A program made the position numbers and the translations under genes. A stretch of 64,000 nucleotides of DNA from Hypanus sabinus. Lineage: Eukaryota. Numbering within the stretch: position 1 is the stretch's first letter; each line of letters begins with the position of its first letter. This document shows positions 8,442 through 44,283 of the stretch, piece by piece. The notes under the pieces are model-generated. The model was not told where the DNA came from. It made no database searches and saw only the letters and a list, made by a program, of their open reading frames with translations. Where the stretch lies: assembly GCF_030144855.1 (NCBI RefSeq), contig NC_082720.1, positions 23,064,001 through 23,128,000 on the forward strand, given 5' to 3'.

Positions 8442-8789
8442 GTCGAGTCGCCTTCGTCTCTGGAACAGAAGTGCGAGGAGTCACGGGACAGTCGATCACA
8501 CTGCCGTGCCGCTATTGTGTCGGAAAATATGGAAAAAGTGAGATGTGCTGGGCCTGGGGACAGTGTGGTGTTATGAACTGTGGAGATGAGCTGATTGGAA
8601 CAAATGGAGACAGAGTAACTTCTGTAACATCCCAGAGATATAGTCTTGGTGGTAGAATTGCGGCAGGAGATGTGTCGCTCACTATAAATGATCTACGGAG
8701 AGAAGATAGCGGCTGGTATTGCTGCCGTGTGGAGATTCCGGGATGGTTTAATGATCTGAAAACGAATTTGAATCTCCGGGTTCCGGACG
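8442..8789 (+). CDS. IgV exon of a TIM-family receptor (HAVCR1/TIMD4-like, T-cell immunoglobulin and mucin domain protein); paralogue not distinguishable
   Basis: Acceptor tgtttcag, donor G|GTAAGC, phase 1-1, 348 nt. Encodes ITLPC..MCWAWGQCGVMNC..GDVSLTI..DSGWYCCRVEIPGWFNDLK: the TIM non-canonical cysteines plus the WFND FG-loop motif. Confidence 0.95.
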
Positions 8790-8939
8790 GTAAGCAGCTC
8801 AATGTTACACGATTGAGTTGTCCATTGGGCATTCCTGGCTGTTCCACCATTCACTCCGAATGTGATTGATCATCTACCTCAGCGCCATTTCCACCACTGT
8901 CCTGTATCTTTAGACTCCATGTCCAGACATCTACCAATC

Positions 8940-18010: not shown

Positions 18011-18094
18011 GCACCAGCACAACATCTCCATCGACCACAACTGAGTCCTTGTCTACAGACCATGGAAGTGACACAATTTATCCACTAAACAATG
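18011..18094 (+). CDS. Candidate mucin-stalk exon (TSTTSPSTTTESLSTDHG[SDTIYPLNN])
   Basis: Acceptor cttttcttctgttacag; S/T-rich only in the phase-1 frame. The 3' end is either 18067 (A|GTGACA) or 18094 (G|GCATTA), both phase 1. Confidence 0.7.
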
Positions 18095-19817
18095 GCATTA
18101 ATATTTTTTTATTTGTGTATACTGCACAATTTAACTATAATCTTCAAAGTGGACAAGAAGGCCTTGAAATTGCTTACAATTTAAATGTTCATGTGTGGAA
18201 CATTAACAATTATGGTGGCTTTAACTTAGATAAAGTATTGTATAGCCAGGTCTCTGTAGATCCCATGGTCCTCAATCTTCTGAAGCTCCTTGCCATTCAC
18301 TTTACTGAAGTTGAAGTAAACAGCATCCATCCTCATTAATTAACCTAACACCTCCTCAAAACACACAAATAAGTAAAATATTTCCTTCCCTTTCTAGAGA
18401 AGGGGCTAGACTTGACCTCTTCTTAGGAAATGAGGTGGGAAAGAGACTGATTTATTCAATGGTGGGAGAGCACTTTGTGATCAGTGACCATAATTATATT
18501 AGCTTTTGATATGATTCAATATAATGTCATAAACTGGGGTAGGGCTTATTCCGATAGCATCAGACAGGAATTCTTAAAAACTGATTGACTGTGGTTGTGC
18601 TCCCTCTTATCATGCCAGACAGTGCTATCTGTGACACTGAATTGTTACTGGTTAGAACAAATGGAGACAGAGAAACTTCTGTAATATCCCAGGGCTATCA
18701 TCTTGGTGGTAAAATTGGGGAAGGAGATGTATCACACACTATGTGATCTACAGAGAGGAGTTAATGGATGGTATTGTTGCCATGTGGAGATTTCTGGACT
18801 GTTCACAATACAGGCCCTTCAGCCCACAAAGTTGTGTCGAACATGTCCCTACCTTAGAAATTGCCAGGCTTACCCATAGCTCTCTATTTTTCTAAGCTCC
18901 ATGTACCTATCCAGAAGTCTCTTAAAAGACCCTATCATATCCACCTCTACCACCGTTACCAGCAGCCCATTCCACCCACTCACCACTGTCTGATTAAAAA
19001 ACTTACCCCTGACATCTTTTCTGTACCTACTCCCCAGCACCTTAAACCTGTGCCCTCTTGTGGTAACCATTTCAGCCCTGGGAAAAAGCCTCTGACTATC
19101 CACACAATCAAAGCCTCTCATAATCTTATACACCGCTATCAGGTCCCCTCTCCTCCTCTGTCGCTCCAAGCAGAAAAGGCCGAGTTCACTCAACCTGTTT
19201 TCATAAGGCATGCTCCCCAATCCAAGCAACATCCTTATAAGTGTCCTCTGCACCCTTTCAATGGCTTCCACATCCTTCCTGTAGTGAAGCAACCAGAACT
19301 GAGCACAGTACTCCAAGTGGGGTCTGATCAGGGTCCTATATAGCTACAACATTACCTCTTTGCTCCTAAATTCAATTCCACAATTAATGAAGGCCAATAC
19401 ACTATATACCTTCTTAACCACAGAGTCAACCTGCATAGCTGCTTTGAGCGTCCTATGGACTCGGACCCCAGGATCCCTCTGATCCTCCATACTGCCAAGA
19501 GTCTTACCGCTAATACTATTCTGCCATCATATTTGACCTACAAAAATGAATCACTTCACACTTATCAGGGTTGAACTCCATCAGCCACTTCTCAGCCCAG
19601 TTTTGCATCCTATCAATGTCCCACTGTAACCTCTGACAGCCCTCCACACTATCCACAACACCTCTAACCTTTGTGTCATCAGCAAACTTACTAACCCATC
19701 CCTCCACTTCCTCATCCAGGTCATTTATAAAAATCACAAAGTGTAACGGTCCCAGAACAGATCCCTAAGGCACACCATTGGTCACCGACCTCCATGCAGA
19801 ATATGACCCATCTACAA

Positions 19818-20716
19818 GCATGAGGAAATCTGCAGATGCTGGAAATTCAAGTAACACTCACAAAATGCTGGTGGAACACAGCAGGCCAGGTAGCATCTAT
19901 AGGGAGAAGCACTGTCAACGTTTTGGGCCGAGACCCTTAATCAGGTCTAACTGAAAGGAAAGATAGTAAGAGATTTGAAAGTAGGAGGGGGAGGGGAAAA
20001 TGCGAAATGATAGGACAGGAGAGGTCCCGGAGGATTGGAGAGCTGTGGATGTTTTTCCTTTATTCAAGAAAGGGAGTAGAGATAGCCCAGGAAATTATAG
20101 ACCAATGAGACTTACTTCAGTGGTTGCAAAGTTGATGGTGAAGGCCCTGAGAGGCAGGATTTATCAACATCAGGATTTATCAATGTACATAGTCACATCC
20201 TGATACATGGTCTCCTCAACCATCAAGATGAAGCCACACTCAGGTTGGAGGAACAACACCTTATATACCGGCTGGGTAGCCTCCAACCTGATGGCATGAA
20301 GATTGACTTCTCTAACTTCCGTTCATGCCCCTCCTCCCCTTCTTACCCCATTCCATATATATTACATTTTCCCCCTCCTTTTTTTTCCTCTCATTCTGCC
20401 CATCACTCTGCCTGTTCTCCATCTCCGTCTGGTGCTCCCCTCCCCCTTCCTTTCTCCCTAGGCCTCCCATCCCATGATCCTTTCCCTTCTCCATCTCTGT
20501 ATCCCTTTTGCCAATCACATTTCTGGCTCTCAGCTTCACCCCACCCCTCCAGTCTTCTCCTATCATTTCACATTATTCCCTCCCCCTCCTAATTTCAAAT
20601 CTCTTATTATCTTTCCTTTCAGTTAGTCCTGACGAAGGGTCTCAGCCTGAAACGTTGACAGTGCTTCTCCCTATAGATGCTGCCTGGCCTGCTGTGTTCC
20701 ACCAGCATTTTGTTTG
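19818..20716. mobile_element. Penelope-like composite insertion with inverted tails and 16-bp TSD
   Basis: tatgacccatctacaa (19802-19817) and tatgacccgtctacaa (20717-20732); arms ~19859-20010 and ~20560-20716 are reverse complements. Confidence 0.8.
20624..20661 (+). ncRNA. Minimal type I hammerhead ribozyme-like motif in Penelope tail
   Basis: AGTC-CTGACGA-agggtctcagcct-GAAAC-GTT-GAC: conserved core boxes, short stem II, stem I AGTC/GAC, palindromic AACGTT. Confidence 0.6.
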
Positions 20717-21263
20717 TATGACCCGTCTACAACCACGCTTTGCCTTCTGTGGGCAAACCAATTCTGGATCCACAAAGCAATATCCTCTTGGATCCCATGC
20801 CCCCTTACTTTCTCAATAAGACTTGCATGGGGTACCTTATCTAATACCTTGCTGAAATCCATCTACACTACATCTACTGCTCTTTGTTCATCAATGTGTA
20901 TAGTCACATCCTCAAAAATTTCAATCAGGCTTATAAGGCATGATCTGCCTTTGACAAAGCCATGCTGACTACTCCTAATCATATTCTGCCTTTCCAAATG
21001 TTGATAAATCCTGCCTCTCAGGACCTTCATCAACTTACCAACCACTGAAGTAAGACTCACTGGTCTATAATATCCTAGGCTATCACTACTCCCTTTTTTG
21101 TATAAAGGAACAACATCCACAGCTCTCCAATCCTCCAGAACCTCTCCTGTCCCCATTGATAATGCGAAGATCATCGCCAGAGGCTCAGCAATCTCCTCCC
21201 TCACCTCCCACAGCAGCGTGGGGTACATCTCATCCATTCCTGGTGACTTATCCAACTTGATGC

Positions 21264-21476
21264 TGATGCACCATCAATAACTCACACTGAGACGTAAGGC
21301 GAGATATCGGCTTTTATTGACTGGAAGAAGGAACCAGGAGTGAGTGTCCATCATACTATGTCCTGGAGACTGAGGCCGAGCGTCAGGCCTCAGATCGCCT
21401 TTATACAGGGGCCTGTGGGAGGAGCCACAGGAGCAGTCAGCAGGGGCGTGTCCAGACAGGCACATAGTTCACCACA
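21264..21476 (-). mobile_element. Solo LTR (213 bp) with 5-bp TSD GATGC
   Basis: TG...CA ends; GATGC at 21259-21263 and 21477-21481; AATAAA near the minus-strand 3' end. Confidence 0.85.
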
Positions 21477-21992
21477 GATGCTTTAAAAAATGTCCAGCAT
21501 ATCCTTTCTTAATAACTACATGCTCAAGCTTTTCAGTCTGCTGCAAGTCATCACTACAATCACCAAGATCCTTTTCCACAGTGAATACTGAAGTAAGGTA
21601 TTCATTAAGTGCATCAACTATTTCCTCCTGTTCCATACAAACTTTCCCACTGTCACACTTGATAGGTCCTATTCTTTCATGTCTTATCCTCTTGCTCTTC
21701 ACGTACTTCTAGAATGCCTTGGGGTTTTCCTTAATCCTGCCCGCCAAGGCCTTCTCATGGCCCTTTCTGGCTCTCCTAATTTCCTTTTTAAGCTCCTTCC
21801 TGTTAGCCTTTTCATCTGCTAGATCTCTAACATTATCTAACTCTCTGAACCTTTTGTAAGCTTTTCTTTTCTTCATGACTATATTTATTACAGCCTTTGA
21901 ATACCACAAAGCACAAAGATGATCTGAAATTGAACTTGCATTTTCTGGTTTTGGACAGCAAGCAGCTCAATATTCCATCTTTCTGTCTCAGC

Positions 21993-22170
21993 AATGGTGG
22001 TGCCGCAGTGTAGTGGTTTCTGTAACTGTCCCACAGATCCTGTGACCCAGGTTCAACCCTGAGCTCTGATGCTCCATTTGAGGAGGTCACCCTCGGTTCC
22101 CCATGTGCTCGGGTTTCCTCCATGTACATGGGGAACATCTGTTTGGAGAGATTACATTGCTTTGATTGAA
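21993..22170 (+). mobile_element. tRNA-derived SINE (V-SINE/HE1-like)
   Basis: A-box-like tggtgccgcagtgtagtgg; B-box-like ggttcaaccc (22050-22059); core-like gggtttcctcc. Confidence 0.55.
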
Positions 22171-22499
22171 TGAATTGTGCTCTTCTGCTCACTGAAAGCA
22201 TATGAAGTGACATAAGGAATATTGATTCTGTCTTTGTTGTTAATTGTATATGTAGTAAGGATAATGCGCTGGGTGAAAGTGGCAGGATGCTACAATATAA
22301 AATGTACAATGTAATAGTGATGCTACCCAGGAGTTATCATGACAACATCAATGGCTCATTAATGACAGAATGCATCTTCACAAGGACTTGACTCTAATCC
22401 TGACCTTGGAACATTCTCATTACTTATTTCAATCTCTTCTTGAGGTAAAGAACTGAACTCAATGGTAGAAGATGTAACAGACTCCTTGACGGACAGATA

Positions 22500-23100
22500 A
22501 TTTCTGACCAAATTAGTGGAGTGCAGAAGACCAAGAAAAATTGATTGCCTGGGAATTGTGTTTCGGGAGGTAGGAAAGAGGCTGAAGTGCAGGACTGCCA
22601 AGGCAATAACTTCCAGATTAATCCCTGTTTCACTTGCTAGTTAGAGCAGGAATAGGATGATAGTACAGATGAATGAATAACTATAGAATTAGTGCAGGGG
22701 CAGGGTTTCAGGTTCTTGGATCATTGGAACCTCTTCTGGGCCACGAGTGACTTGAACAGAAGGGACTGGATGCACCTAAACTGGAGAAGAACCAATTTCT
22801 TGGCCAGGAGGGTCATTAGTGCCACTCAGGATTGATTAAATTAGTTTAGCCGGGGATTGGAATCAGAACACTCGGTCAGAAAGTGGAGGGATACAGATGT
22901 ATCCCTGGTAGATGTCAGGGCCAGTAAAAACAGACAGGAGAAAAGTAATAAGTAGATATGATGGATAGTTTGAAGAGTGTATAATTTAATCCTAGGAGTA
23001 TTATAGATAAAGAGGATGAACTGGAGCTTGGATCAGTACAGGAATTATGATGTTCTGGCCATTGCAGAGATTTTGTTGAGAGAGGGATAGGAATATGTGG
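22500..23100 (+). mobile_element. CR1 ORF1 (esterase-like) and endonuclease-start remnant
   Basis: Similar to 49450-49820 (ttcttggatcattgg...ctcttc; ggaattatgatg). Confidence 0.6.
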
Positions 23101-24348
23101 TTAATTTATTTGTGTCAGCACTACATAGTGGGTTGAGGGGCCTAGTTATAAGAATCACCCCTTGCAACAATGATCAGAAAGGCACAGAGAGAATCTTTAT
23201 TTACCTAACCACAAAGTACACCACAGATGCTGTGGTCAAATCAAGACGTAGAAAAAAGCTGGATGAGCTCAACAGCTCGGGCAGTATCCGGTTGAAAGAA
23301 GCAGTCAACGTTTTGGGTCGAGACCTTAAAAGTTGACTGCTTCTTTCAACGGATGCTGCCCGACCTGCTGAGTTCATCCAGCTTTTTTGTATGTCTTGAT
23401 CTCTATTTACCTACAAGTAACCTTTATTGTCTCAACTAAAAAGCATGTGGGTTCGCTAACTAACTACTTGTGAGCACACCCACAAGAATTCCCAGAACCT
23501 CCATGAACAGTCAATGAAGGGAACAGGTACTACCAGGGAAAGGAGTCTATGCTGACCAGGCATTCTCATTATCCTGATCTCCACATATCCATGGCATCCT
23601 CCTCACCTGCGATGGTTGCTGGAGAGTTATCGCTGTAACGCATTTGGAGCTCCAGACTTTTTCAGTGTACCTCATCAGTTGAACTGGTGGATCTCCAACC
23701 CATTGGCTCAAGGTCACCTGGCCCAGCTGGTTCTAGTCCAGGGCTATAACCAACATTGATTTATGTTTCTGTCCACACCATCCTTACGTATTTGTGTCTT
23801 TCAAATCTGATTGGTCCAAACATTAAACTGGGCGACCCAAGCACTAAACCTAATGAGATTACAAATCATTTCTCTGGTAAATCTACCATTTTACATAATA
23901 AATAGCAGCTCATCTGAGAAAGGTCTCAGGGTTAGCAGGTCATTAGCTGAAGCTCCGTATGTCCACATTCAATTGTTCTGTTTAGATAATCCAGGAGCAA
24001 GAATCAGTTCTGAGTTCACAAAATGGGGGGTGGGGGAACAAGGACAATTGGTTTGTCTACTTCCCCTGTCCTTGATTCATCCAAATCCACTAATCTGTAG
24101 ACTGTAGTTCCTTTTGGCAGTAGTAGGCATAAGGGTTTAGTTTAGTTGGCCATTTTATTACTAATTTATTTGTTCTGGGACTACATTATGAGTTGAAGAG
24201 CCTGTTTATGTGCTGTACTGTTCTATGTTCTGAAAACTGAGATTGGAATTTTTGGCAAATTATCTCAGTATCTGGATAAACTGTTTTTACACTCAATACC
24301 ATCTTGTTCTGTTTCCTGCACATTTCATTCTTAAAACTGTCATTACAG

Positions 24349-24407
24349 GTTTTACAACCTATCCGTTGACATCTCCTAGAGATTTCAGTTCAACTCCACA
24401 TTTACCT
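24349..24407 (+). CDS. Candidate mucin-stalk exon (FTTYPLTSPRDFSSTPHLP)
   Basis: Acceptor gtcattacag, donor CCT|GTGAGC, phase 1-0, S/T/P-rich. Confidence 0.55.
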
Positions 24408-24659
24408 GTGAGCAATTTCTTTTTTTATCCAGAAGATAAGTGTAATTATTCATAAAATTTCACTGAGATGACAAGGTTATCTCCTTCTGCTCAGCTTGTT
24501 CCAGTGTTGTATTGTACATGCATACTTTGACAATAAAATAACCTTTGGAATGCCAGAACTTTGAAAGTTCTTCTTTTTCATAGAAAAAGTTAAATAATTG
24601 AAAAGATTGTTCTGAAATGAAAGCAGAACTCTGTTTGGATCATAGTGAAGGGAGGGTTA

Positions 24660-25330
24660 GACCATAAGACCATAACAAGAGGAGGAAGACAGGAGCAGAA
24701 TTGGCAGAATTTGGCCCCTCAAGTCTGTAGCCTCTTACACACTTACTAATCCAGAATATGTCAACCTCCACTTTAAATATATACCCTGGCTTAGCCTCCA
24801 GCCATCTCTGATGATGAAGTCCAGATTCACCACCCTACAGATAAAAATATTCCTACTAATCTCTATTCTAAAGGGATGTCTTCATTATTTTGAGGTTGTG
24901 CCTTCTGGTCCTCAACTCTTGTACTACTGGAAACATCCTCTCCATTTACACTCTATTCAGGCCTTTCGATTTTCAGTGGGTTTTAATGAGATCTCAACTT
25001 ATTCTTATAAACTTGCAGCAAGTACAGACCTAGAGCCATCATATGTTCCTCATACATCAAGCCTTTCATTCCTGGATCATTCTCATAAACCTCCTCTGGA
25101 CTCTCTATAATGCCAACACATATTTCCTTAGTTATGAGGCCCAAAGGTGCCCACAAGATTCCAAATATGTTGACAAACACCTTATCAAGCCTCAGCATTA
25201 CATTCTGGCTTTATATTCCAGTTCACTCGAAATAATTGCTAACACTGCATTTCGTTCCTCATCACTGACTCAAACCGAAAATTAAAATTTGTGAATCCTA
25301 CATTAGGACTCCCCCATTTCTTTGCACCCA
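24660..25330 (-). mobile_element. CR1 3' fragment
   Basis: Minus ORF DPGMKGLMYEEHMMALGLYLL. Confidence 0.7.
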
Positions 25331-27950
25331 ATACTTCCAGTCAAGATAGTACCAGCAAACAACGGTTCCTCAGGCAACATCTTCCAGGTAGTCAATCTCT
25401 TCAATGATTTAACTTTTTTTACAAAAAAGTAGAACTTTCAAAGTTCTGGCATCCTAAAGGTTACTTTATTGTCAAAGTATGCGTGTACAATACAATTCTG
25501 ATATTCGTCTTTTCCAGATAGCCATGAAATACAGAAAAACCATGGGTGTTGTTGAAAGAAAGTACATCAACCTGTCTCAACCCCTTGTTCTCTCTGTTGT
25601 GATTGTTTCAGAGACTGTTCGAGCCTGTGGTGTACTGGTTGGCATTTGATCAGGTGATCTGGCATGTTGCTATCCTCAGATAGTATCATGAGCACAGGTT
25701 GCCTATTGCAGGAGACCAGAGAAGGGCCATAATCAACTCCATTTTGAAGCATTGAGGAAGATCATGGTGAATGTGGGGGAGGTCAGTGGTTGCTCTTCAC
25801 AGAGGCCATGGACTGATGGTGGTTGGTAGCCAGGTCAGCAGCATCTGGATGGCCTCAGATCAGCATGCGGTGGTCAGCATGCCACAGGACGGTGGCGGAG
25901 TAGTCACTCTTCATGGAAGGACTGAGTTCAAGCAGTCGCTGTTACGGTTCTGGTGGGACGATATGCTAGAAATTCTGAGATTTGTGTGATCATTGGGCAG
26001 TAGTTTATTTTGCACTCCTTCAGGTTTTTCTTTTCTTGCTTCTTGCTGATTGGCTGGTTAGGTTTCTGGGTGCGCAGTGTGTTGGTTTTTGTACAAGGGA
26101 GGGGTTGGGGATTTGGGATCCGATGATCTGTGTGGGCAATCTCCTGATTTTTTTTGTGTGTTTGATGGGGTTAGGGGTTTGGTGCTGCGTTTCCTGTTTG
26201 TTTTTGTGGGGGAGGGGTTTGGTGGGGAGATGTTATTGTCACTTAGTGCAAGGGACAGGGTTGTTCTGGCTACTGTATTCCAGGTGAGATGTTAGTCAGT
26301 TTGTTTCTGTGAGAGAGGGGGTGAGGGGGTGTTCTATTTTCCATTTCATGCGGGAAGGGGGTTTGTTGTCTATTTTTTCAATGACACCTATAGTTTTTCT
26401 GCATTTTTTGGCTATCTGGAAAAGACCCATATTGGAGTTGCATCATACATGAATACTCTGACAATAAAATGAAACTTTGGAACACGTCTTTTTAGGAAAG
26501 AGTCTTTTATGCCCATGCACATGTATATGTAAACTGTGAGCTTTTACCTGGGCTCAGTGCATAAAGGTGAGGTGAATCTTTTGAACTGAAGTGTTGAGGA
26601 CTGAGCAATGCAGATGTTTCATTTGTGTGTCAGGATTCATTGTACAATCAATGATGCTAATAGCCACATGGATGGATATACCAGTATTAGATTTAATGGG
26701 AAATAATTCATCTTTCTCACAGCATTTACATTCTTGGAGCATTTACATTCTTGGAGCATTCTCCATGATATTGATATGCACAGCTGGTACTTATTAGTAG
26801 GGACATGTTTGGCAGAGGTAGGGACATGTTCAGCACAACTTTGTGGGCCGAAGGGCCTGTATTGTGCTGTAAGTTTTCTATGTTTCTATGTTTCCCTCTA
26901 ATTCCTGAACATCCGTCCAGCAGATCTGCTCTTCTGCAGGTAATTTATGTTGATCTTCTCTGAAAGGCTTGTGATGGGTTCCATTACATTTCAGAACACT
27001 TTGCAGCTCCAGCTGTCTCACATTCTCTTATTTGTCAACATTTCACAGCAGAAATAGAAAATGAAGATCAGTTCTTCCAACCTGATCATCGTGAACAGTT
27101 CACTATTGCCTTTTCCTAATGGCCCATTTCCATCTCTTTTTGCAACCCAGTGTGACCACAGCCAAGTTGAGGAGAGTCCTAGCCAGGGTAAATCCACACA
27201 AAGCTGCCGGGTGCTGAGGGATTCTCTGCCCCAGCTAACAGACATCTTAATGGATATCTTTAATATCTCTTTGCAACAGTCCATGCTGTCCATGCAGGTT
27301 TTAAGGTTTTATTAAGTGCTTGCAGTTCGCTCATTTTAAATTTAAAACCGAGAAAATAGGTCTTGTTCTCTGTTTCAGGTTTCTGCTGAGCTTGTGAACA
27401 ACCTGATTTCTCTTCTTTGCTGGACCGCTCGTGCCTCAGTTTTCATCTCTTTCCATCACTGTGCTGCTTTGCAAGTGGAAACATAAGTGACAAATTAATA
27501 TTTAATATTCAGAACATATATTTAAGATATTTGTGTAAAGTTGCTCTTCACATTTCACACAATGTGATGATGATATTTATTTGAAGTAAACTGCTTTATT
27601 TGAGCAAAGCAATTACAAAGGTCAGATATGTGACTCTCATGTTTCCCTCTGTGTGGATAAGACCACGTCTCTACTCAACAAAGTACTCTCTGTAACTGGG
27701 TGAAACTTGTTAACAGTCTATTCCCATTTCCTCTGTACTCTGGTCATAATGTATAGTTGTCATACTACACACATTTGTTACCTCTCTGCCCACCTGTGCT
27801 CACTCTTTTAGGGAACTATGAACTTGCACCCTAAAGTTTCACTCTTCAGTCACAGTTCCCAGAGTCACGTCATGGTTTACCAATCATCCCATCCACATTT
27901 CCTTTCAATTCATTAATATGCAGAGCAAACAAAACAGAATAGACAAGAAA

Positions 27951-29002: not shown

Positions 29003-30984
29003 AAAGTGGAAGCATTTATCAATCATTATGGGCATGGAGTAAAGGAATTGCTCGAGGAATATAAAGAATGTAAAAGGAATCTTAAGAAAAATTAGAAAAG
29101 CTAAAAGTAGATACGAGGTTGGTTTGGCAAATAAGGTGAAAGTAAATCCGAAAGGTTTCTACAGTTATATTAAAAGCAAGAGGATAGTGAGGGATAAAAT
29201 TGGTCCCTTAGAGAATCAGCGTGGTCAGCTATGTGTGGAGCCGAGGGAGATGGGAGAGATTTTGAATGATTTCTTCTCTTCGGTATTCACTAAGGAGAAG
29301 GATATTAAATTGTGTAAGGTGTGGGAAACAAGTAAGGAGGTTATGGAACCTATGACAATTAAAGAGATGGAAGTACTGGCGCTTTTAAGAAATTTAAAAG
29401 TGGATAAATCTCCGGGTCCTGACAGGATATTCCCCAGGACCTTGAGGGAAGTTTGTGTAGAGATAGCAGGAACTCTGACGGAGATCTTTCAGATGTCATT
29501 AGAAATGGGGATTGTGCTGGAGGATTGGAGTATTGCTCATATGGTTCCATTGTTTAAAAAGGGTTCTAGAAGTAAGCCTAGCAATTATAGACCTGTCAGT
29601 TTGACAGCAGTGGTGGGTAAATTAATGGAAAGTATTCTTAGAGATAGTACTTATAATTATCTGGATAGACAGGATCTGATTAGGAGTAGCCAGCATGGAT
29701 TTGTGCGTGGAAGGTCATGTTTGACAAACTTTATTGAATTTTTTGAAGAAGTTACGAGGAATGTTGATGAGGGTAAGGCAGTGGATGTAGTCTATATGGA
29801 CTTCAGCAAGGCCTTTGACAAAGTTCCACATGGAAGGTTAGTTAAGAAGGTTCAGCCGTTAGGTATTAATGCTGGAGTAATAATATGGATTCAACAGTGG
29901 CTAGATGGGAGATGCCAGAGAGTAGTGGTGGATAGTTGTTTATCGGGATGGAGGCCGGTGACTAGCGGGGTGCCTCAGGGATCTGTTTTGGGCCCAATGT
30001 TGTTTGTAATATACATTAATGATCTGGATGATGGGGTGGTAAGTTGGATTAGTAAGTATGCCGATGATACTAAGGTAGGAGGTGTTGTGGATAATGAAGT
30101 GGGTTTTCAAAGCTTGCAGGGAGATTTATGCCGGTTAGAAGAATGGGCTGAACGTTGGCAGATGGAGTTTAATGCTGAAAAGTGTGAGGTTCTACACTTT
30201 GGCAGGAATAATCCAAATAGAACATACAGGGTAAATGTTAGGGCATTGAGGAATGCAGTGGAACAGAGAGATCTAGGAATAACAGTGTATAGTTCCCTGA
30301 AGGTGGAGTCTCATGTAGATAGGGTGGTGAAGAAGGCTTTTGGAATGCTGGCCTTTATAAATCAAAGCATTGAGTACAGAAGTTGGGATGTAATGCTAAA
30401 ATTGTACAAGGCATTGGTAAGGCCAAATTTGGAATATTGTGTACAGTTCTGGTCACCGAATTATAGGAAAGATATCAATAAATTAGAGAGAGTGCAGAGA
30501 CAATTTACTAGGATGTTACCTGTGTTTCAGCACTTAAGTTACAGAGAAAGGTTGAACAAGTTAGGTCTCTATTCATTGGAGCGTAGAAGGTTGAGGGGAG
30601 ATTTGATCGAGGTATTTAAAATTTTGAGAGGGATAGATAGAGTTGACGTGAATAGGCTGTTTCCATTGAGAGTAGGGGAGATTCAAACGAGAGGACATGA
30701 TTTGAGAGTTAGGAGGCAGAAGTTTAAGGGAAACACGAGGGAGTATTTCTTTACTCAGAGAGTGATAGCTGTGTGGAATGAGCTTCCTGTAGAAGTAGTA
30801 CAGGCCAGTTCAGTTGTGTCATTTAAGGTAAAATTGGATAGGTATATGGACAGGAAAGGAGTGGAGGGTTATGGGCTGAGTGCGGGTAGGTGGGACTAGA
30901 TGAGATTAAGAGTTCGGCACGGACTCGGAGGGCCGAGATGGCCTGTTTCCATGCTGTGACTGTTATATAGTTATACTGTTATAT
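29003..30984 (+). mobile_element. Young 5'-truncated CR1 with uninterrupted 591-codon RT ORF (29124-30899)
   Basis: KSPGPD, NYRPVSLT, YMDFSKAFDKV, GVPQGSVLGP, YADD motifs; no endonuclease domain. Confidence 0.95.
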
Positions 30985-33190: not shown

Positions 33191-33465
33191 GTAAACCTCA
33201 TTCAGTCACTTATCAAAGTTCTTGCAAAAGGAATTAGTTCTTCAATAAATCAAATCAGATTCTTCGAATGAAAAATAAACTTATACATCCAATGATATTA
33301 AATCCTCCACATCGTGAAGCATTCCATTCCCGTGCTGGATCCTCGATCTTGGGTGACTCACCATCCTGTTTCTTGGTTCATTGGATGAAATGGTGGGTCA
33401 TCCACTGAAAGTCCATTCACTATACATTACACAAAAAATAACTTGACCAAATCCCTTGGTATGAT

Positions 33466-36400
33466 TGTAATGTTGAATCAGGTTTGCAGGCCCTGCAAGT
33501 GAGACAGGAGTTGCACTGACTTTGAATAGGTATTTTAATAATTTATTTACAAACAGTAAAAATACAACCAAACATTCACGTTCCCCTGTTACAGACTCTA
33601 CAAAGCTGAATACTCAACAAACACATGAACATTCAACGAACATACTTAGTTAAAAGTACGTGCAGAGCATACCTTCCCAATCATCATGTGCATCCTTGCC
33701 TTAAACAAAAGAAGAAGAGAGAAAGCATCTTCCATTTGCAATTTTACAGTACATCTCCAGGATATTTGAAATTGGACACCAGGCAGTTATCCAATGGGAA
33801 AAGGTACTGCAGCTTCTAAACTAACTAATCATGATGGAAACAACTTTCCATAATTAGAATACAGCACAACCCACAGAATACGAAAGTCACAAAAGTGATG
33901 ATCCAACTCTCAGACTAGTATGACTCTCATGAACTCCTAACTAAGTTATACATAAAACACAAGAGCCCAATACCCAGTACTGTAAAGCCAATAGTCACCC
34001 CCCAGTATACTATAGTAGTCCACCAGCCTCCCTCTACTGCAAGAGGCCACCAGCCCTACCCTAGAGTGTGATAGCCAATGAGCTAGTCTCCCATTTAATT
34101 TGATCAACCAGGTGAGAGATGTTACCCGACCCATCAGGAATGGAGATCCAGCATTCTTAACCAATAAGTACAAGTGCCACTTTCCTTTGTGATCAGGTAA
34201 TCCAAGGCCATCAAAATCAGTTCCTGGGACAGTCTGGCCGTCCCATGCAGAGAAAGGCTATCACTCAAAACATCCTTCCTTTGAAATAGTCCTCTTACCA
34301 ACCAGCGTAGGCAAGGTGCTCATCCAGGGCACTAGGGTGGCATACATACAGCACCACATATCAACTGCACCATCCCTGTGGGAACAACAGGTAGGCCTAG
34401 GAACTGCGTATCCAGTAAGTGCCATTCAGCTTCCAACAATTGCCCGGCCTCAAAACACCATCTGGCATGGACACAGTCATCCCAGGATACTGTTCCTGCT
34501 CAGACTTGCCATCCACCTTGCACCTTGTACCAGTGCTCAACACCCACACCCACACTCTGTCAGGTGGGAAAATCACATTAAGAGTCAGGACATTCCAATG
34601 AACGGAAGGGTATGTGGGGAAATTTCAGCCCTTAAAGCACTCACTCCACCAGAGCTATTAAGGCTCAAGTCCCTTAAGCCTGTTACCATACTGTGGGTCG
34701 AGGTTGGTTGGAATAGGCTTCTCCCAAAACAGAATGCCAAACCCCAAGAAGCCAGATAACTTCCCCAACAGGCTTTTCTTTGTCGTCGAAGGGAGCGATA
34801 TCAGTGGCATCCTTCTGTGATGTTGTAAGGATTTTTCATACAAATTCAACAATCTGACTCATTGGTCCAGTGTACAAATTCAAACGCCATCCACAGGAAT
34901 GTATAACAGGATCTCCCGCCACAAATCAACATTCCCCACTTTGCCATTCTGTAATGTAGGGAGATACAAATACACTCGCTCCTGATTAGTCACTGGATAT
35001 TTAGAAAACACAAAAACAATAAAACTACAAATGCTCAATTCCCTCTGAAATGTGGGCATCTCATATCTGGAATAAAGTTGCCCAAATTCCTACCAAGTTT
35101 CAACATTGCCAGTATGTAATGAGACATCCCTAAATCAATTAACATATTGAAACACGATAATCATGTAACAGATTTAGAAAACAAGAAACAAAGAAGTAAT
35201 GGATTAAATGCAAAACATAAATCACAAAGTCTAGGTTGTATTCATCTTCTTTAACACTTCCTATGGAACTGGGAAAACATAAACCGGACAGTTAATTCAG
35301 AGAAGTAGCACTTAGCGGAGAACAACTGATAAGAAAAAAGTAACTGGGTGGGACCCAACACATTCACAGNNNNNNNNNNNNNNNNNNNNNNNNNNNNNNN
35401 NNNNNNNNNNNNNNNNNNNNNNNNNNNNNNNNNNNNNNNNNNNNNNNNNNNNNNNNNNNNNNNNNNNNNNNNNNNNNNNNNNNNNNNNNNNNNNNNNNNN
35501 NNATGTGAATATATTAACCATCTCCGGATTGCCATTGCTGGTGATCGTCAGCAGGGAACCCTGAATGGAATGCGAGGAGTCTGGCAGATGACAAAAAGAA
35601 CCCTTATCTGCAGAGGACTTGAAGAAAGACCCTTCCCCTCAACAATCTCCCTTTTTTGCTTTTCCATACAGAACTTCCTCCACTTCGCATAGAGTGTGGG
35701 GATAGGTACCCCATTTAGCTGCTCGTCCGGGACCCAGCTTTAAGCTTTGTGGAATATGCAGGATCTCCCACTTCCCCTCTGCTCATCCAACTTGGCTACG
35801 TGCACTCTCTTCTACAGACTCTAATCCTTGTAATGATTGATTCTCTGTACTTACAGGATGACCAACAAGCCGGTGCAGTTAAAGACAGCCTTACCCCTCT
35901 AATTGGAAAAACTTCCTCCATAACCATGTGCCTCACTGTTTCAGAGGTTAATCCAATGACCTCCGGTGGGAATCACTATCACAGTGTATTTCTGTGATAG
36001 CAGCCCACTGGTGTAGAAATGTAGAACCTTCCTCTACTGTGCTCCATTCTGCTTGGGGTTTTAAATTCCGTTCAGTAAGAATGGGAAACCTCAGTTTAAC
36101 TGCAGCCGTTACCCAAATCCAGAGTGATGTATTAAACTCAGGGGAAGCAAGCAGTGATCTCAGGATGTTATTGATCGCGTGTTGAGACAACAGTCTCCCT
36201 AAGGCACCCATCTCTCGATTAGATAGGTTCACTCAGGTACTCACCCCATTACCTCAACAATTTGTAGCTATCTCTAAACTCGACAATTCCTTAGCAGAGC
36301 ATTGTCTCAGCTCTGTTTTCTCAAAGGTGTCCTTTACACCACCCCCACACATTCCTGAGCCTCCTACCCCTCCCCTCCCCCTCCTGAGAGGAAGAAGCTG

Positions 36401-37531
36401 CAGATTGATGCCCCCCCCCCCCAACAGCGGGTGTTGGAACTCGTAATTACTGGCCTGGCCTGTACTGTTTTGGACACAAAAGGGAGAGGGAGATCATTTC
36501 AACAATTAAACGGAGGGGTCCACTCTACTCTCTCTCCCCCTCATTTTCATCATCCATCCAGGCATCTCATCCCCCAGTCCCACAGTCGGATCATTGCCCC
36601 ATCTCAACATTGCTCAAGCTTTAATGGGATCAGGTTCCCAACTGGCCCATCAGGCCCCCTTGAAATTCTATTCTTTCATTAGCCAACAGGCTATCTGTAG
36701 ATTCATATCTTCTGACTTCACAGCCCACTGTGAGCCATCAATAGTGACTCATTCCGAATAATACAATCCTGACTGAGATCTTCCAATTCGTTCTTAAGAC
36801 TCGCTATTGTTTTATACTGATGTCTTACTATTGCTGCAAAAAGACAAAAAGCATCCCGCCAGCTCTCTTTCCTCCTGGAAAAACCCTATGTCTAGTATAG
36901 AAACAATGTGATGTCCCACTCCCACCCCAGTGAAGTCTAACTAGGCTGACCAATTTGCTGGGATCCCATCACCCATCAGCAGGTGAGCGAGACTTCCAAA
37001 GCCTGCATTAGTGTTCATCCTGGTCTCTGCATCTTTCAAAGGGAGAGTCATCTCTTTTAAATAACCTCTTAAGGAAATGTATTTCTGCTCAAAAAGCCAT
37101 ACCCTGCTTGCAGTGCCAGGTTTAATATTACATCAGGTATATGAGTCGAGCAAGTAAGACAGAAAATACACTGACTTTGAATAGGTATATTAATTGTTTA
37201 TTTACAAATAATAAAAATTCAACCACACGTTCATGTACCCCGAGTTACAGATATTACAAAGCTGAATACTCAACAAACACCCATGAATTCAACAAACATA
37301 CTTAGTTGAAAGTACGTGCAGAGCATACCTTCCCAATCGTCATGTGCACCCTTGCCTTAGACAAAGGAGTAAGAGAGAAAGCCTCTTCTATGTGTAATTT
37401 TATATACCAAAGATATTTGAAACTGGACCCCAGGCAGTTATCCAATCGGAAAAGGCGATGCAGTTTCTACCTAACTGATCACAACAGAAGCAACTTTCGA
37501 CAATCAGAATAAGGCAAAGCCCAACAATATA
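33466..37531 (-). mobile_element. Endogenous retrovirus remnant: 5' LTR 37121-37531, PBS 37101-37118, gag remnant ~35520-36230, env remnant ~33950-35064, 3' LTR 33466-33882
   Basis: Two ~415-bp LTRs (~80% identical by eye); ATGAT TSD at 33461-33465 and 37532-37536; PBS TGGCACTGCAAGCAGGGT 2 nt from the LTR; env motifs NGTYW..AYLLFPQGW and MALDYLITKESGTC..LIG.ECWISIPD. Confidence 0.85.
35370..35502. other. Assembly gap (133 N)
   Basis: Run of N inside the provirus between gag and env. Confidence 1.
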
Positions 37532-40108
37532 ATGATTTAACAGAACTAATTTCCTGTTACACGGTGAAGATCTTGGACTCTACTCGCTGCTGATATCGTC
37601 TCACTATAGCCAGTGCTCATTATCGCTTTGTTTTATCAATATTGTCTCTCCTTCAGGAGTTTCACCCTGAGGATTTCTAATAAGTAGGGTAGAGATACTA
37701 ACTACTAATTCCACTTTTAACAGTTTATACCTTTAGTTCGTTTCTATAGTTTGCTGAATTTCTATTGCTTGTCTATGCATACATCAGCCACACGTTGTAC
37801 TCATATAGCTATTTTTTCAAGTTCTTTTTCTTTTAAATTCAGTAAACCTCATTTACACCCCTTCACAGGTGGAGCTTTCTAACATTATATCTTTGGGTTT
37901 AACTATCCTGGGTTCATTTTTTCATTGCATTTCAAATGAAAAAATAATGAATGATAACCTGAGTTACACTAACTTCAAAGATAACCTGAAGAACTGCCTT
38001 GTAGGACTGTATTGTAGTGTACAGACAGGAAGATTGAACCTTGGATGCATGTTTTAATCTCCTGAGTTTGTCACAAAGGTGAGAGAGATGCTTCTTAAGA
38101 ACAGTCATCATGTCAATGTGTGGAGGATATTCTGACAACCTAATCAATCTAACCTGCTCAGAATCAAGGTACTCACTGTCTGCTGGGTGTGTTGTGAGTC
38201 TAGATGTATGGCAACATGGTTGGAATTAAGTGTGAAGCAGCGGTTGTGAAGATTCAATAAATACAGGTGAATTGCTGTTAGCTTTCTCTCCAACATTCAC
38301 ATTAGATTTTAAAGCCAAGAAGAAACAGGAAGTGAATATTTCACAACAAGACACACAACACCATTGATGGAGAGTGAATTCTATCCTGACTGGAATGTTG
38401 TTGATGTATTGTAAAAACATTGTAAACTGCCTCTACTGTAGATGAATGGCAGGGGAATAGCAGGGAGCTCTAGGAGAAAGATTCTAAGAAGATAGCGTGG
38501 AGTGCGTCTGATGGGAACATATGGACTGATGATATAAACTTGATATGCTGGATGGTCCTCTCCTGTCCACTAAGAACGCTTGAAGTAACAAAATGAATAC
38601 CATTGTTCACAATCATTCACTCAACTTCACGTGTCCCATCAGTGAACTGGTCCCACAACCTATGGACTCACATCCAAGGACTATTTAGCTCATGTCTCGA
38701 TATTTACTGCTTTTTTTTCTTTTGTATTTGCACAGTTTGTTGCCTTTTTACACCGGTTGTCCACCCAGTTGGGTCCAGTCTTTCATTGATTCTATTATGG
38801 TTATTGGATTTACTGAGTAGGCCCACAAGAAAATGAATCTCAGGTTTGTGAATGGTGATGGATAATTTCTTGGATAATGAATTTACTTTTGAATTTGTTC
38901 TTTGAATATTGGTAATATGGATAATATGCAAGATGAAAACGGCAGGGTAGTACAATGTGATACGGACAAAGAAGCATTGTCTGATATTCTGTGGGGAAGA
39001 AACTTGTGTGTGTTGAACAACCCTGTGCTGGGTGCTCTACAGAAACTTGGGGTCATCCTGTTCTTGCTGGTTTTGATGCTGCTGTCATAGGAGCATTAGA
39101 AATAGGAGCAGGGGTTGTCCATTGGATGCTCCAGCCTGCACCTCTGTTCATTAGGAATTGCAACTTCACTGCCATTTTCCAGCACTACTCTGTATTTCTG
39201 GACTCCATGTCCAAGTGTCTATCAATCCATGATTAGAACAAATACAATAACTGAGCTTCTGCAGCCCAATGATCCACCAAACCAGAAAGCTCCTCTCATC
39301 TATACCTCAGCTTCCATATTCTTTCCAGACATCTACCTTGCCATTTTCTCCACTGTTTTTCTTTTGTTCTCCCGTTCTTCTAAACTTGAATGTGCAGTCA
39401 CACTCGACTCAGTTTCTCCTCTTAGAATAACCCACTAGAACAGTATCTTCTCTGAGCTCTACCTAAGGTAAATAAATTCTTTCTTTTTGACAAGAAACCA
39501 AAACTACAACAGAGGACAGGTCCAGATCTCATATAACTGAAGTTTTGCTTCCTTACTCCTGCATTGAAACGCTCATTAATCAAGGAAAACCAGTCATTTG
39601 TCCCTACATGCTGGTCTGAATCAGTTTGTGTACCATTTTGCCAAACTCCAACACTGTCCAAACGCTGCCCACCAGGTTCAGGGACAGTTTTTATCCTTCA
39701 TCCATCAGACTCTTGAACCAGCGAGCATTACCTGACTCACCTCAACCTTGAATGCATTTCACAACCTATGAATTCACTTTCAAGGGCTTTGTATTATTTA
39801 TTTATTTACTTAGTAATACACAAAATGCAGGAAGAACTCAGCAGGTCAGACAGCATCAATGGAAAGAAATAAAGAGTCAATATTTCAAGCTGTGAGCCTT
39901 CACCAGGACTTGAAAGGAAGGGGGAAGAAGCTAGGATAAGAAGGTGGGGGAGGGGAAGGAGTACAAACCAGCTGAGGGGAAATGTATGCAGCTGGGTGGG
40001 GAGGAAGACACTGGGGTAGTGAGTCAGGTTGAATACATGGTCAGAGTGTGAGAGCAGCAGAGATTACAAAGGGGAAGCAATGTGAGGGGTTTTCACTGAA
40101 CTCCCGTC

Positions 40109-40444: not shown

Positions 40445-43400
40445 TAGGGTTGCATCGAAGAGCGTGGACAGATCACAGTTCTGGTACAGCTTCACCTTGG
40501 TGTAGATGCTGTGCTTGGTTGATCTCCATATGTTTCTCATTGCTCTGGAGGCGCTTCTAGCTTTGCCGAGTCTGCACTACATGTCCTTCTTGGTCCCAGC
40601 GTCCCGCCGAATGATGCTGTTCGGGTAGGTGAATCTGCCGGTGCTGGATAAGTCCAAGCCATATCGTATGCCTTGACGGGAGGAGGAGACTTTACATTAA
40701 GGGTCATAGTCTCACTCTTTCTCAGGCTGACTCTGAATCCAACCTGTCCACCAATGAGACACAAGTGGTGAGTTTTCTCTTGCCATGTGCTGGTATGTAT
40801 GTGACAGTAATGTAAGGTCATTTGCACAGTCAAGTTCTTCTAAAGTTATGAATATTTGTTCACCTAATGCTTCTCTGCTTATTTTTCATTGTTTGCCTCA
40901 TAACCCAGTCAATCACCAGGGTAAATAATATTGCCAACATCACAGAGTCTTGCCTGACTCCTGTCTTGACTTCAAAGCTCAAATTGCAGTCCCAACTGTG
41001 CAGATGAAATAAGCATACAAACTCTGGATAAGTGAACAATTTTGGAAGGGATTCCATATGATCTGAGAGTTTGCTAGAGGCTCTCCCTGTGAATGCTATC
41101 AAAAGGCTTTTCAAAGTCCACAAATTTCATATACAGTTGTCACTACCACTCTGTAAACTGTTCTATGATGTTACACAGCATGGAGTTCTGATCAACACAG
41201 CCTCTGTTCCTCCTGAAGGCAGTTTTCCCTTTCCTCAAGAACACATCGACAATATCTGCAACTCATTGGACAATCACTTTGGTAAGAATCACTTAGAACT
41301 CCTTTCTTGGAGATCCTAACGATAACTCCCTTTGTCCAGTTCTTGGGTGCTTGCTCCCATTCCCCGATTATAGTAAACAGTGTTTGCAGGATGGTTGCTG
41401 CAACTTTTGGTTCAGTTTTGAACAGCTCAGCAATCAAATTATTTGTTGGGGTCCGGTCCCAAGCCCGCCTTCCAGGTCTTGCTCTGCTCTGCGGACTCTG
41501 GACTCTGGGCCTTGCAGCCAGCCCTCCTGTCACACGGAGCCATTGGATCATCTTGGCTTAAGGAGGGACACCAGTTGCCTATTAGGGGGCAGGTGTTTAT
41601 AAGGGGCTCAGACCCCTAGTTGTGGGGTTGTTATCCTCTGAAGTTGGTTTAACCTGCTCTGTACCTGGGCTGCTGGCTCTGAATCTTGTCTGTATCCTGT
41701 TCTACCCTGGTTACCACCCTGCTTGGAATCTTGCTCTGCCCTGGTTGCTGGTCTGTTCTGTATATGCTCTATCTGGTTGGTCTTGTTCCCCTGCTTCTCT
41801 CCTGTGCACTGGTCCTGCTGTTCTGACTTATTCTTCTTGCTTGTGCTGCCATGCTGTTGGTTGCCTTTCCCAATTTATCTGTATATCATGGTAGTCCTGC
41901 TGCTCACCCTGGACCCAGTTTCCTTCTGATCCCTTGCTTCTGTTGGGCAAGTCTGGCTGGACTGCTGCTGCCTGATGGGGGTTCTACCCCTTCCTACCTG
42001 TTGCCTCTTTTGGGGAGGTCTGGCTGGACTGCTGCTGCCTGGTGGGGGTTTGGCCCCTACCTACCTGTTGCCTCTGTTGGGTAGGTCTGGCTGAACTGCT
42101 GCTGCCCAGTGGAGGTTCTGCCCTTTCCACCTATTGCTCCCTAAGGGTTGTGCCCTGCACCTGCCCAGGTGTCTGTGACTGGCCCAGGCCTCTGAGCTTT
42201 TTCACCTGGGAGGTGTCCCTGCCCAAGATCCATGTGGCCTGACATGTGGAATCCTCCTGCCCTGCCTCAAATGAACTCTGGGATTCTCCTGCCCTGCCTC
42301 AAATGAACTCTGGGATTCTCCTGCCCTGCCTGACCTCTGTGATCTAGCTCCACCTGCCTTACCTTTTACATGCCATGGCATCCCCATCCTGTCCTACCCC
42401 TAGTACTTCAGTGTCTGCGTCCTGCGTTTGGGTCCATCTGGCCCCCGTTCCTGACAGTATTATAAAGCTGGAACCTTGCTGTTTTTTAATGATTTAATCG
42501 CAGCAACAATTTCTTCTTTCTTGGGTGGATCTGTATTGATGTTGAGGTCCTCTGCTACATCTTATGTCAGATTCTTCATTTGATGGTCATCTATTCAGTA
42601 ATTCTCTGAAAGACTCTGTCCATCATACCACTAGCTCTTTCTCAGTTGTCAAATGCAGATCGTTCTTATCTCTCATGGGACCACTGGACCTGGCCTGGCA
42701 CTTTCCGCAGACCAATTTTGCATATATTTCCATGATCACCTGAATTGGCTGCTGTTTTGGCTTTCTCTGCTAGGTTTTCAATGTAGACTCTCTTATCCTT
42801 TCTTACAAATCTCTTCACTTCCTTGTTAGAATCAGTGAAAGCCTGTTGAAGTTCCACCTTAATGCCTATTGACTTTGCATCTAATAATTTCTTCTTAATT
42901 TTCCACCTTTCTTCTAAAGCTGTCCATGTTACCTGTTGTATCCATTCTGTGTTCTTCTTTGTGGCTCTGTGTCCCAGACAAGCCTCACAGTTCTCCTTGA
43001 AGAGCAAGGCAATCCATTTCCACATTGTGTCAGTCTTGTCTACTGACACATCCTCGTCAAGGTCTGGAGTCTGTTCTTAAGCTGATTGGTGAAGATGATC
43101 TCACACTGGTGTCCTTGAGCTCTTCAACATCAAAACATCTTCGTACATGTGTTTTAGCCCCAGTGCTTCTCAGTTTGAGTGCTACAACAAGGTGGCGATC
43201 ACTTCCTGTATCTACTTCTCCTTTCAGCTTTACATCCTGCAAGGATCGTCTCCAAGTACCATTGATCATGAAATGGTCAATCTGATTCTTGTCTTGTCCA
43301 TGGGATGAGCACTAACTCAGTTTGGAGATTTCACAGTGTGGAGCGAGGATCCCTCCTTTGACCAGATGGTTCACGGCACAAAATTCCACCAGTCTTTCAC

Positions 43401-44283
43401 CATTGTTATTCATCGTTCCACATCCATGCGTGCCCATGACCCTAGAGAAGTGTGAGTTGTTATTTCCCACTTTAGTGTTTAGATCTCCCTTGACGATGAT
43501 TATGTCAGGATGTGGTGTTAACTCTACCTCCGACTGCAGTTGTTTGTAGAAGATATCCTTTTCTTCAATGCCACTATTGTTAGTTGGAGCATAGCACTGG
43601 ATCACAGTCATGTTCACTTGCTTCACTTTTATGCTGACTCTCATCAGCCTACTGTTGATTGGTTTCCACTCCAGCAAGCACTTCTCAACGCCTTTCTTCA
43701 AAATGACAGCCACACCATCATGATGCTGCCCATTTTCCCATCCTGAGTCTAAAACTGTTTCACCAGTTGCTGCCTTTAGTCTGTCAGACCCTGTCCATGT
43801 GCTTTCACTGACACCCAGTATATGCAGGTTGTAACAACACATTCCTGCAGTTATTTGTGCTGGCTTTCCAGTGTTGTACATGGTTTGTACATTCCAAAAA
43901 AAAGTTTGGCCTTGGTCTTGGTGGTGCTCAGGGCTTCCTTCATCGTGCCAGTAGCTTCCTCTTGGTTTTCACTACTGTCAGTCATGCAGATCCCGGGTGG
44001 AGACTAGGAATACAGTTGCACACAGATATAGAAGGATTCTTCATTTCTGTTTTCGTAACCATTGTTTTTGACCAATAAGGGTTGTTAGTCCTGGTTTGAA
44101 TTCATGAACCTGGAGGACCAGTGGACCACTCTTGGTCTGACCTCTACCTTTATAACTGTTTGGCATGGGTGACCCTTCTAAGAGTCAAAGCACGGAGCCC
44201 TCACTCCAGTCAACGTAGCTCTCCAGGTCATTGAGGCATGCAAGCCTCCGAGCCCTAAGACAAGGTTGTGGTCCTCTTGGAGG
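40445..44283 (-). mobile_element. RTE-clade LINE, near full span, decayed and internally deleted
   Basis: Minus ORF 43312-43881 endonuclease (LGVSE..W.GS..TVIQCYAPT..GDLNTKVG); ELFKTEPKVAATIL; FEVKTGVRQ; RTE-type 5' UTR near 44150-44280. Confidence 0.85.
41444..42456 (+). mobile_element. Solo LTR (~1 kb, Gypsy-like) nested in the RTE, with internal tandem repeats
   Basis: TGTTGGG...CCTGACA ends; ttatt/gtatt imperfect TSD; ~31-bp unit repeated at ~42253-42330. Confidence 0.75.

Follow-up and report, generated by a model that had tools for sequence, protein, structure and literature searches.

Among class III endogenous retroviruses (ERVs), HERV-S takes its name from its serine-type primer-binding site (PBS), and the ERVL-MaLR elements (MaLRs) carry 5-bp target-site duplications (TSDs) and long terminal repeats (LTRs) of 350–450 nt. 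The element analysed here is an ERV copy on the minus strand, at positions 33466–37531, of a 64,000-nt stretch of the Hypanus sabinus genome (NC_082720.1, positions 23,064,001 to 23,128,000; the window): a ∼4-kb LTR-gag-env-LTR sequence, old and decayed, in which all frames are broken. It is one decayed copy of a multi-hundred-copy family without pol, here called family A, which, judged by described features, appears to resemble XtERV-S and HERV-S in its ancestry. With a probability of roughly 80%, we consider that the family multiplied as a MaLR-like, non-autonomous element parasitic on class III retroviruses, because pol is absent and breaks in env are common to independent insertions.

XtERV-S of Xenopus tropicalis is described as joining class III gag and pol to a class I env, with a Ser PBS, 5-bp TSDs and CWIC at residues 40–43 (Yedavalli et al. 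2021, PMC8278194). HERV-S (HSERVIII) is likewise described with a class III backbone, a class I env and no dUTPase, and the same source assigns all credible class III env sequences of the human genome to class I (Vargiu et al. 2016, PMC4724089). Chen et al. (bioRxiv 2021.11.23.469661) reported gamma-type Env from six cartilaginous fishes, three of them with >500 copies, as well as class III Pol with class I (gamma-type) Env, e.g. ERV-SA.a-Ppe, whose host may be a sawfish; class III Pol with gamma-type Env has been reported from fish and amphibian screens. Xu et al. treat class III ERVs within clade Huo. The elephant-shark CmiERV lineages I–III are complete elements with env and are SnRV- or epsilon-related; they were defined by Pol, and such a screen would miss pol-less families (Han 2015, PMC4422223). 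MaLRs are described as lacking both pol and env and as sharing gag homology with ERV-L (PMC11359688, PMC4724089), and Fv1 as derived from the Gag of MERV-L (PMC11359688). Trans-complemented defective ERVs are well documented, including bovine ERVK[2-1-LTR] D-type elements, ETn/MusD, IAP I-delta-1 and RecKoRV (PMC10924933). An initial annotation, made from the letters of the window alone, had proposed a class III-type Gag with a gamma-type transmembrane subunit (TM), a Ser PBS and a 5-bp TSD, all of which our analysis supports. It had also presented this combination as unusual, which the accounts of XtERV-S (PMC8278194), HERV-S (PMC4724089) and the fishes of Chen et al. (bioRxiv 2021.11.23.469661) do not support: class III gag with gamma-type env is already known and is what class III ERVs with an env ordinarily show.

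The paired minus-strand LTRs and the flanking TSD of the window copy, both proposed initially, were confirmed (Table 1). Its two LTRs are 17% different (Kimura two-parameter distance, K2P, 0.197 over 405 columns, with the 5' LTR taken as 37531–37124). Dating by LTR divergence had been suggested; at a shark rate of 2.2e-10/site/year (PMC4422223) a K2P of 0.2 would give ∼450 My, which was judged implausibly old, and no age is claimed. The PBS begins 2 nt past the 5' LTR, as annotated; the annotated match of 15/18 became 16/18 against the genome's own tRNA-Ser 3' end, with both mismatches of CpG type, and the match is 18/18 in two other family A copies (L027, L033) and in one copy of a sister family (L055). 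A PBS-derived pattern was found at 53 places in the 4.04-Gb genome (reversed control, 0), and 11 of the 12 scanned host loci with a PBS-complementary end were tRNA-Ser (nine TGA, two CGA). A tRNA-Ser-like gene (L065:1442–1523), called tRNA-Arg(TCG) by ARAGORN owing to a one-base loss near the anticodon, is likely a pseudogene. No clear polypurine tract (PPT) precedes the 3' LTR in the window copy, as the initial annotation had it, or in its paralog L001; other family A copies have a purine tract there, identical to that of the sister family (family B, described below).

Table 1. Features of the family A copy and of the neighbouring host gene, in window coordinates.
Feature	Position	Strand	Remarks
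3' target-site duplication	33461..33465	-	5-bp, ATGAT/ATCAT pair with 37532-37536
3' LTR	33466..33882	-	417 nt, end ...TTACA
PPT site	33883..33900	-	purine tract lost in window copy and paralog L001
env, gamma-type, broken	33927..34947	-	start codon 34947 by homology; signal peptide ~7 codons short family-wide
TM membrane-spanning segment	33960..34013	-	
TM ectodomain remnant	34150..34244	-	no N-heptad, no first half of immunosuppressive domain; MALDYL, then frameshifted CX6CC
CXXC of surface subunit, stop inside	34840..34851	-	stop common to 35/42 copies
Non-coding spacer in pol's expected place	34960..35600	-	contains N run 35370-35502
gag, broken, full-length, Fv1/ERV-L type	35620..37060 (ends approximate)	-	colinear with Gag of pol-bearing sister family
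Gag C-terminal motif KAGVP...WRK, conserved	35674..35741	-	two frames; predicted small helical domain
Primer-binding site	37101..37118	-	16/18 complementary to host tRNA-Ser(TGA/CGA) 3' end
5' LTR	37121..37531	-	~411 nt; family termini TGT...ACA, both decayed in window copy
5' target-site duplication	37532..37536	-	ATCAT on element strand; paralog L001 has same flank
IgV exon of TIM/HAVCR-like gene	8442..8790	+	V-set E=1.8e-15; one of tandem cluster
Candidate Thr/Ser-rich (mucin-like) exon	18011..18067	+	

First-look searches by DNA returned 1181 LTR, 584 env and 342 gag candidates, of which the best 40 of each were scored. A total of 84 loci, picked by LTR, PBS, gag or env similarity, were fetched; removal of five duplicates (L001, L002, L110, L116 and L117) and addition of the window gave a de-duplicated set of 80, comprising 48 loci with gag and env, 11 with gag only, 12 with env only and nine with LTR only. 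None of the 48 gag+env loci contained pol, nor did 12 further family A loci among 20 fetched later give a pol match. As controls, Pol queries detected pol in 5/5 loci of the related family C, and Gag and Env queries from the sister family detected family A in 57 and 52 loci, respectively. The distance from the end of gag to the start of env was mostly 309–520 nt; six longer intervals were searched for pol, five without a match and one, in L027, with a match (E=0.004) that was rejected as chance, since the catalytic motif is absent. Whole-locus searches placed pol matches only in adjacent elements or gave weak ones outside the ERV. The suggestion that pol is hidden in the N run of the spacer fails as well, because paralog L001 has only ∼72 nt there, including a (GT)n repeat. 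A 2.1-kb extra segment of L001 was also rejected as pol, being an insertion without pol matches.

Target-site duplications of 5 bp were exact in eight and near-exact in 17 of 41 spans (not all of these could carry a TSD), and no exact TSD of 4 or 6 bp occurred among these spans; such varied 5-bp TSDs indicate integrase-type insertion. Family A therefore consists of separately inserted elements that carry the 5-bp TSD and TGT...ACA termini of class III together with the Ser PBS of ERV-S. LTR pairs of 18 two-LTR copies had a median K2P of 0.184 (range 0.039–0.265); in L033 the low value (0.039) goes with a gag as decayed as usual, so that its LTRs seem to have been homogenised and the copy need not be young. 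The window copy and L003 are independent insertions that group in one Gag tree and have the same 5-bp TSD in different flanks, probably by chance. No published description of family A turned up in our literature searches, which took in the preprint text of Chen et al.

The env of family A is broken in ways that recur from copy to copy. In the window, NGTYW of the surface subunit (SU) is present at 34426 as annotated, and MALDYL, correctly recognised at 34211 as resembling the immunosuppressive domain (ISD), is followed by a CX6CC-like stretch and a membrane anchor; the CX6CC is broken by a frameshift, however, and the ISD is without its N-terminal half. The ATG at 35064 and the splice acceptor before it, from which the initial annotation had env begin, do exist, but homology to pol-bearing relatives puts the start codon at 34947, so the annotated start is probably wrong; the hydrophobic AFVVLL stretch is likewise real but lies upstream of 34947, between two stops. 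Measured as TM spacing, family A has 25–33 nt in 36/36 copies versus 140–156 nt in 11/11 copies of family B, and an older pol-bearing group, D, has 141–157 nt in 6/6 rows (counts made without one mis-anchored row, L032, at 115 nt). The TM of family A is thus ∼123 nt (∼41 codons) shorter than that of its relatives: all 36 copies lack the N-heptad together with the first half of the ISD, both of which family B and group D possess. A stop inside the SU CXXC was found in 35/42 copies, against ≤∼21% stops at other Trp-homologous codons; CpG decay was rejected as its source, as a single stop triplet accounts for 34/42 copies and the reciprocal product occurs in none. A second SU stop is carried by 23/40 copies and an additional 7-nt loss by 8/36. 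The distance from the start codon to the CXXC is ≤110 nt in 47/47 family A copies versus 112–125 nt in 6/6 of group D, a shortening (∼7 codons) that falls in the signal peptide. Frame spacing modulo 3 between anchors was too noisy for use.

The gamma-type character of this Env is given by its CXXC and CX6CC; the latter is readable in many family A copies, and the former is uninterrupted in families B and D and in a further group, A2. The complete N-heptad and ISD are absent from family A. A check against the TLV_coat profile had been proposed: the window's own fragments gave no Pfam match and family A fragments matched at most weakly (E=0.019 in one of eight, from another copy), while the sister-family Env matched at E=3.4e-14. 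The TM remnant of family A is a weak match to the TMs of class I fusion proteins.

Identical env breaks across independent insertions suggest inheritance from a replicating template, and that template presumably already had a dead env, with a short signal peptide, the SU stop and no N-heptad. The implicit view of the initial annotation, an isolated provirus that lost pol, does not hold for a copy whose env breaks are shared across a pol-less family. The broader proposal that each copy was a complete infectious provirus, losing pol and env function only after integration, would fit copies that are old, star-like in their relationships and decaying about neutrally. It has to contend, however, with the same spacer in place of pol in independent insertions with different TSDs, with the sharing of identical env breaks, and with the retention of pol in 0/48 loci; we regard it as largely refuted already and as very improbable indeed.

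The condition of gag differs from that of env: no majority-shared stop was found at the 334 of 500 positions that were testable (≥8 copies covering), and the commonest stop (10/28 copies) shows the mixed pattern of CpG decay. Stop-free segments of 140–155 aa (N-terminal) and 261 aa (C-terminal) survive in single copies. The natural 261-aa ORF of L041 retrieved 28 relatives at E≤0.001 in a HMMER search of representative proteins, those with names coming from an electric ray ('Friend virus susceptibility protein 1-like'), frogs, a snake, an owl and medaka. The best of these relatives has Fv1 as its nearest fold (TM-score 0.50); by its features it is assigned to spumaviral Gag at 0.84, which we take as a lead. 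A structural model of the L041 ORF (pLDDT 85) gave weak matches to retroelement capsid domains (Z 4.4–5.7), including the foamy virus capsid over 151 residues; the top viral fold match was the Gag of WEHV-2, which was non-significant (E=0.094). No match was returned by Foldseek with the Gag model at E≤0.001, by sequence searches of the PDB with Gag profiles, or by word-indexed searches among longer proteins with Gag and TM fragments, and a degenerate Gag ORF found only low, unrelated matches in the ESM Atlas. We read the Gag as class III in type, being ERV-L/Fv1-related with no Cys-His box (zinc knuckle) seen on reading the sister-family Gag, and the capsid-type fold as weakly supported.

The Gag motif of the initial annotation is real and of class III type, but it does not lie in one frame (KAG at 35741 and VPDEQ... 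at 35733 are in different frames), and it belongs to the C-terminal domain rather than to the major homology region (MHR), whose MHR-like core is damaged in the window copy. The motif (model residues 187–233 of L041:3796–4512) is predicted to form a small helix-extension-helix domain, with weak matches to mixed helical proteins including Rho-N, SAP and LEM domains (Z 3.6–5.5; Z≤5.3 when folded alone). Judging from the model, this domain may stand in for the missing zinc knuckle.

Relatives of family A in the same genome were reached with ray Gag and medaka integrase queries (families B and C) and with an unaltered TM fragment (older groups). Family B (L045–L059) is complete, with gag, pol and env, LTRs 4–8% apart (K2P 0.04–0.08), 5-bp TSDs, and the same PBS and PPT as family A. 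Several of its copies have tandem expansions in gag, the gag-pol junction or env, among them a 1577-aa repeat ORF in L045 and repeated heptad units in L052. Family C (L060–L064) has LTRs of ∼780–830 nt, a different tRNA-Ser-type PBS and a Gag that groups with electric-ray and stingray proteins; a Cys-rich tandem repeat lies in the env of L064. In the older group D, pol is present, the TM is long and the CXXC, at Env residues 40–43, is free of interruption, and A2 has no pol match, an uninterrupted CXXC and, in the one measurable copy, a short TM. The A2 members L157–L160, L162, L164, L168 and L137 are older and have their own LTRs; pol may therefore have been lost, or LTRs replaced, on more than one occasion. 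ERV-S/L-type retroviruses radiated repeatedly in this genome, which contains groups A, A2, B, C and D at least.

The family B reverse transcriptase (RT) falls among Pols of amphibians, lungfish, bichir and turtle, with a stingray Pol as its closest neighbour (70% over 129 aa). The nearest named relatives, this stingray Gag-Pol and the electric-ray Gag, give indirect support to a cartilaginous-fish host. Grouping with Gypsy had been named as an outcome that would overturn the annotation; a Gypsy/Ty3 identity was rejected, as the sister RT matches retroviral RTs at E 1e-31 versus 1e-18 for Ty3 and is 51–56% identical to vertebrate retroviral Pols. These are amphibian Pols, nine of those listed having a dUTPase. 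An SnRV-like (CmiERV lineage I) or epsilon-like affiliation, in place of an ERV-S/ERV-L-like one, might be expected from the published cartilaginous-fish ERVs, which are SnRV- or epsilon-related (PMC4422223), from the SnRV-related label that Chen et al. attach to their class III group, from an RT tree without named references and from the non-significant WEHV-2 fold match. Yet the Gag relatives are labelled Fv1-like and have their nearest fold in Fv1, the sister Gag shows no zinc knuckle, the sister RT is far weaker in its match to murine leukemia virus (MLV) and foamy virus RTs than to amphibian Pols, and the CXXC of group D Env sits where XtERV-S has it (PMC8278194 Table 2); we think such an affiliation unlikely. 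Neither SnRV nor CmiERV sequences came up in the Pol searches.

Likened by its described features, XtERV-S agrees with family A and its relatives in a zinc-finger-free class III-type Gag, a tRNA-Ser PBS, a 5-bp TSD, TGT...ACA termini and a gamma-type TM with CX6CC (PMC8278194). It differs in being intact, with pol and dUTPase and tRNA-Ser(AGA/TGA), whereas family A is without pol, and when the Pol tails of families B and D are aligned with those that bear a dUTPase, the dUTPase portion is passed over. The lack of dUTPase departs from XtERV-S and ERV-L and fits HERV-S, which is described as mammalian, pol-bearing and low in copy number (PMC4724089). The 19 internally deleted derivatives of XtERV-S keep only the 5' end of gag (PMC8278194); family A, in contrast, has a full-length gag and a broken env.

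The gag tree placed family A as sister to the pol-bearing group D (local support 0.994), while the env tree placed it as sister to part of A2 (support 0.966). By these sequence comparisons there are hints that family A could have arisen by recombination between a group D gag and an env that was broken beforehand. Family B was rejected as the direct parent of A, because the two have LTRs that cannot be aligned and group D is the nearer relative.

If family A was a non-autonomous parasite, its RNA would have been primed by host tRNA-Ser, and protease, RT and integrase are predicted to have been borrowed in trans from pol-bearing relatives. With its own env dead, the family itself would have supplied no fusion protein; its gag, in contrast, was probably an open frame, whose product may have promoted the packaging in cis of the RNA encoding it. 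The older pol-bearing group D is the likely parent and helper, and the younger family B could have been a later helper. The window copy would afterwards have lost its PPT and then been duplicated passively with a host gene cluster.

Like the MaLRs, family A is a high-copy, non-autonomous class III family without pol and with an ERV-L-related gag; MaLRs are described as env-less and eutherian (PMC11359688, PMC4724089), whereas family A retains a broken env of ∼1 kb as well as a tRNA-Ser PBS. The likeness is probably convergent: family A, whose nearest named relatives come from rays and amphibians, seems to belong to a different class III lineage and, with env retained, acts like a MaLR without being one. 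Documented trans-complemented ERVs also keep LTRs and parts of gag or env and outnumber their helpers (PMC10924933); those described are class I or II, young and share the LTR of the helper, whereas family A is an old class III family for which the analysis turned up no helper sharing its LTR.

A more specific proposal is that a MaLR-like element arose independently in cartilaginous fishes and is seen here in mid-course: pol would have been lost and env would then have died in inherited steps while gag stayed open, with parent, intermediates and a possible later helper in one genome and family A maybe a recombinant. Of the env steps, heptad loss would have come first, in an older pol-less group, followed by signal-peptide shortening and the SU stop in family A and by a frameshift in a sub-lineage. 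We hold this tentatively, at somewhat less than even odds. Another possibility concerns the route of spread: family A may have reinfected germ cells in virions for which a co-infecting helper provided both Pol and Env, as with VL30 or RecKoRV. In its favour, the genome contains pol-bearing relatives whose TM is long and whose CXXC is uninterrupted, A and B have PBS and PPT in common, and most copies keep the env remnant. Env-less class III relatives, on the other hand, are taken to have spread intracellularly (PMC11359688), and the sequence does not separate helper virions from intracellular trans-complementation, of which they are a route variant; we judge germ-cell reinfection less likely than not.

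Several observations weigh against a non-autonomous family whose env was dead and whose gag was open. The fetched loci are the top-scoring ones only, ∼90 of several hundred. In the TM remnant, pN/pS was 0.66 (0.49–0.89) versus 0.81 and 0.95 off-frame, which is unexpected under a dead env; no purifying selection was detected on family A gag (pN/pS 0.85, 0.72–1.01, versus 0.82 and 1.12 off-frame), and the middle (linker) of gag has shared indels. The trees were built from fragmentary, query-anchored rows with no named reference viruses. The LTRs of family A could not be aligned to LTRs of B or D; accordingly, none of the pol-bearing elements among the fetched loci had family A LTRs. Finally, the three best-dated D/A2 LTR pairs (K2P 0.27–0.29) are older than most of family A and family B is younger; overlap in time with a helper is thus not shown.

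What is new is a pol-less, env-dead, multi-hundred-copy family with a candidate parent and intermediates in the same genome. Its shared env breaks form a datable series from infectious retrovirus to gag-only parasite, of which mammals show only the end point, the MaLRs. Screens based on Pol would miss such families; the main text of Chen et al. (bioRxiv 2021.11.23.469661) describes none without pol, and its supplements may hold relatives of B, C or D.

The window copy lies 25 kb downstream of an IgV exon and antisense to it (Table 1). The exon is presumably of the TIM/HAVCR family, a name we base on its WFND motif, and has ten further matches (84–93% identity) plus fragments within 0.45 Mb on both strands (G000:C33:22.75–23.20 Mb), a tandem expansion on which a literature search returned nothing. 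The antisense orientation given in the initial annotation holds for these upstream exons, but an intronic position is not established: the exon search found plus-strand exons upstream only and no downstream (transmembrane) exon. Contigs matched to window positions 8000–27900 consisted largely of repeats. Two paralogous copies have the same flanks as the window element, which was duplicated along with the tandem TIM-like gene cluster. Its env is only 2% from that of L001, so the insertion long predates these duplications, and it offers a marker for ordering duplications in this immune gene cluster. Retention of the locus because its LTR or gag serves the adjacent TIM-like genes could be read into its antisense position near the IgV exon and its passage through the duplications, but all frames are broken, and the LTRs are 7–8% from those of the paralog compared with 2% for env, which argues against LTR conservation; a host use of this kind seems very unlikely.

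A second cluster, of more distant V-set exons (33–38% identity to the window exon), lies at G000:C75:13.4–15.6 Mb. On the same contig, regularly spaced repeat matches to integrase and env (G000:C75:46.23–46.58 Mb) apparently represent a tandemly amplified ERV. Near the window element, long LINE-type ORFs of 618 and 218 aa (29043–30896 and 43315–43968) occur amid many LINE fragments.

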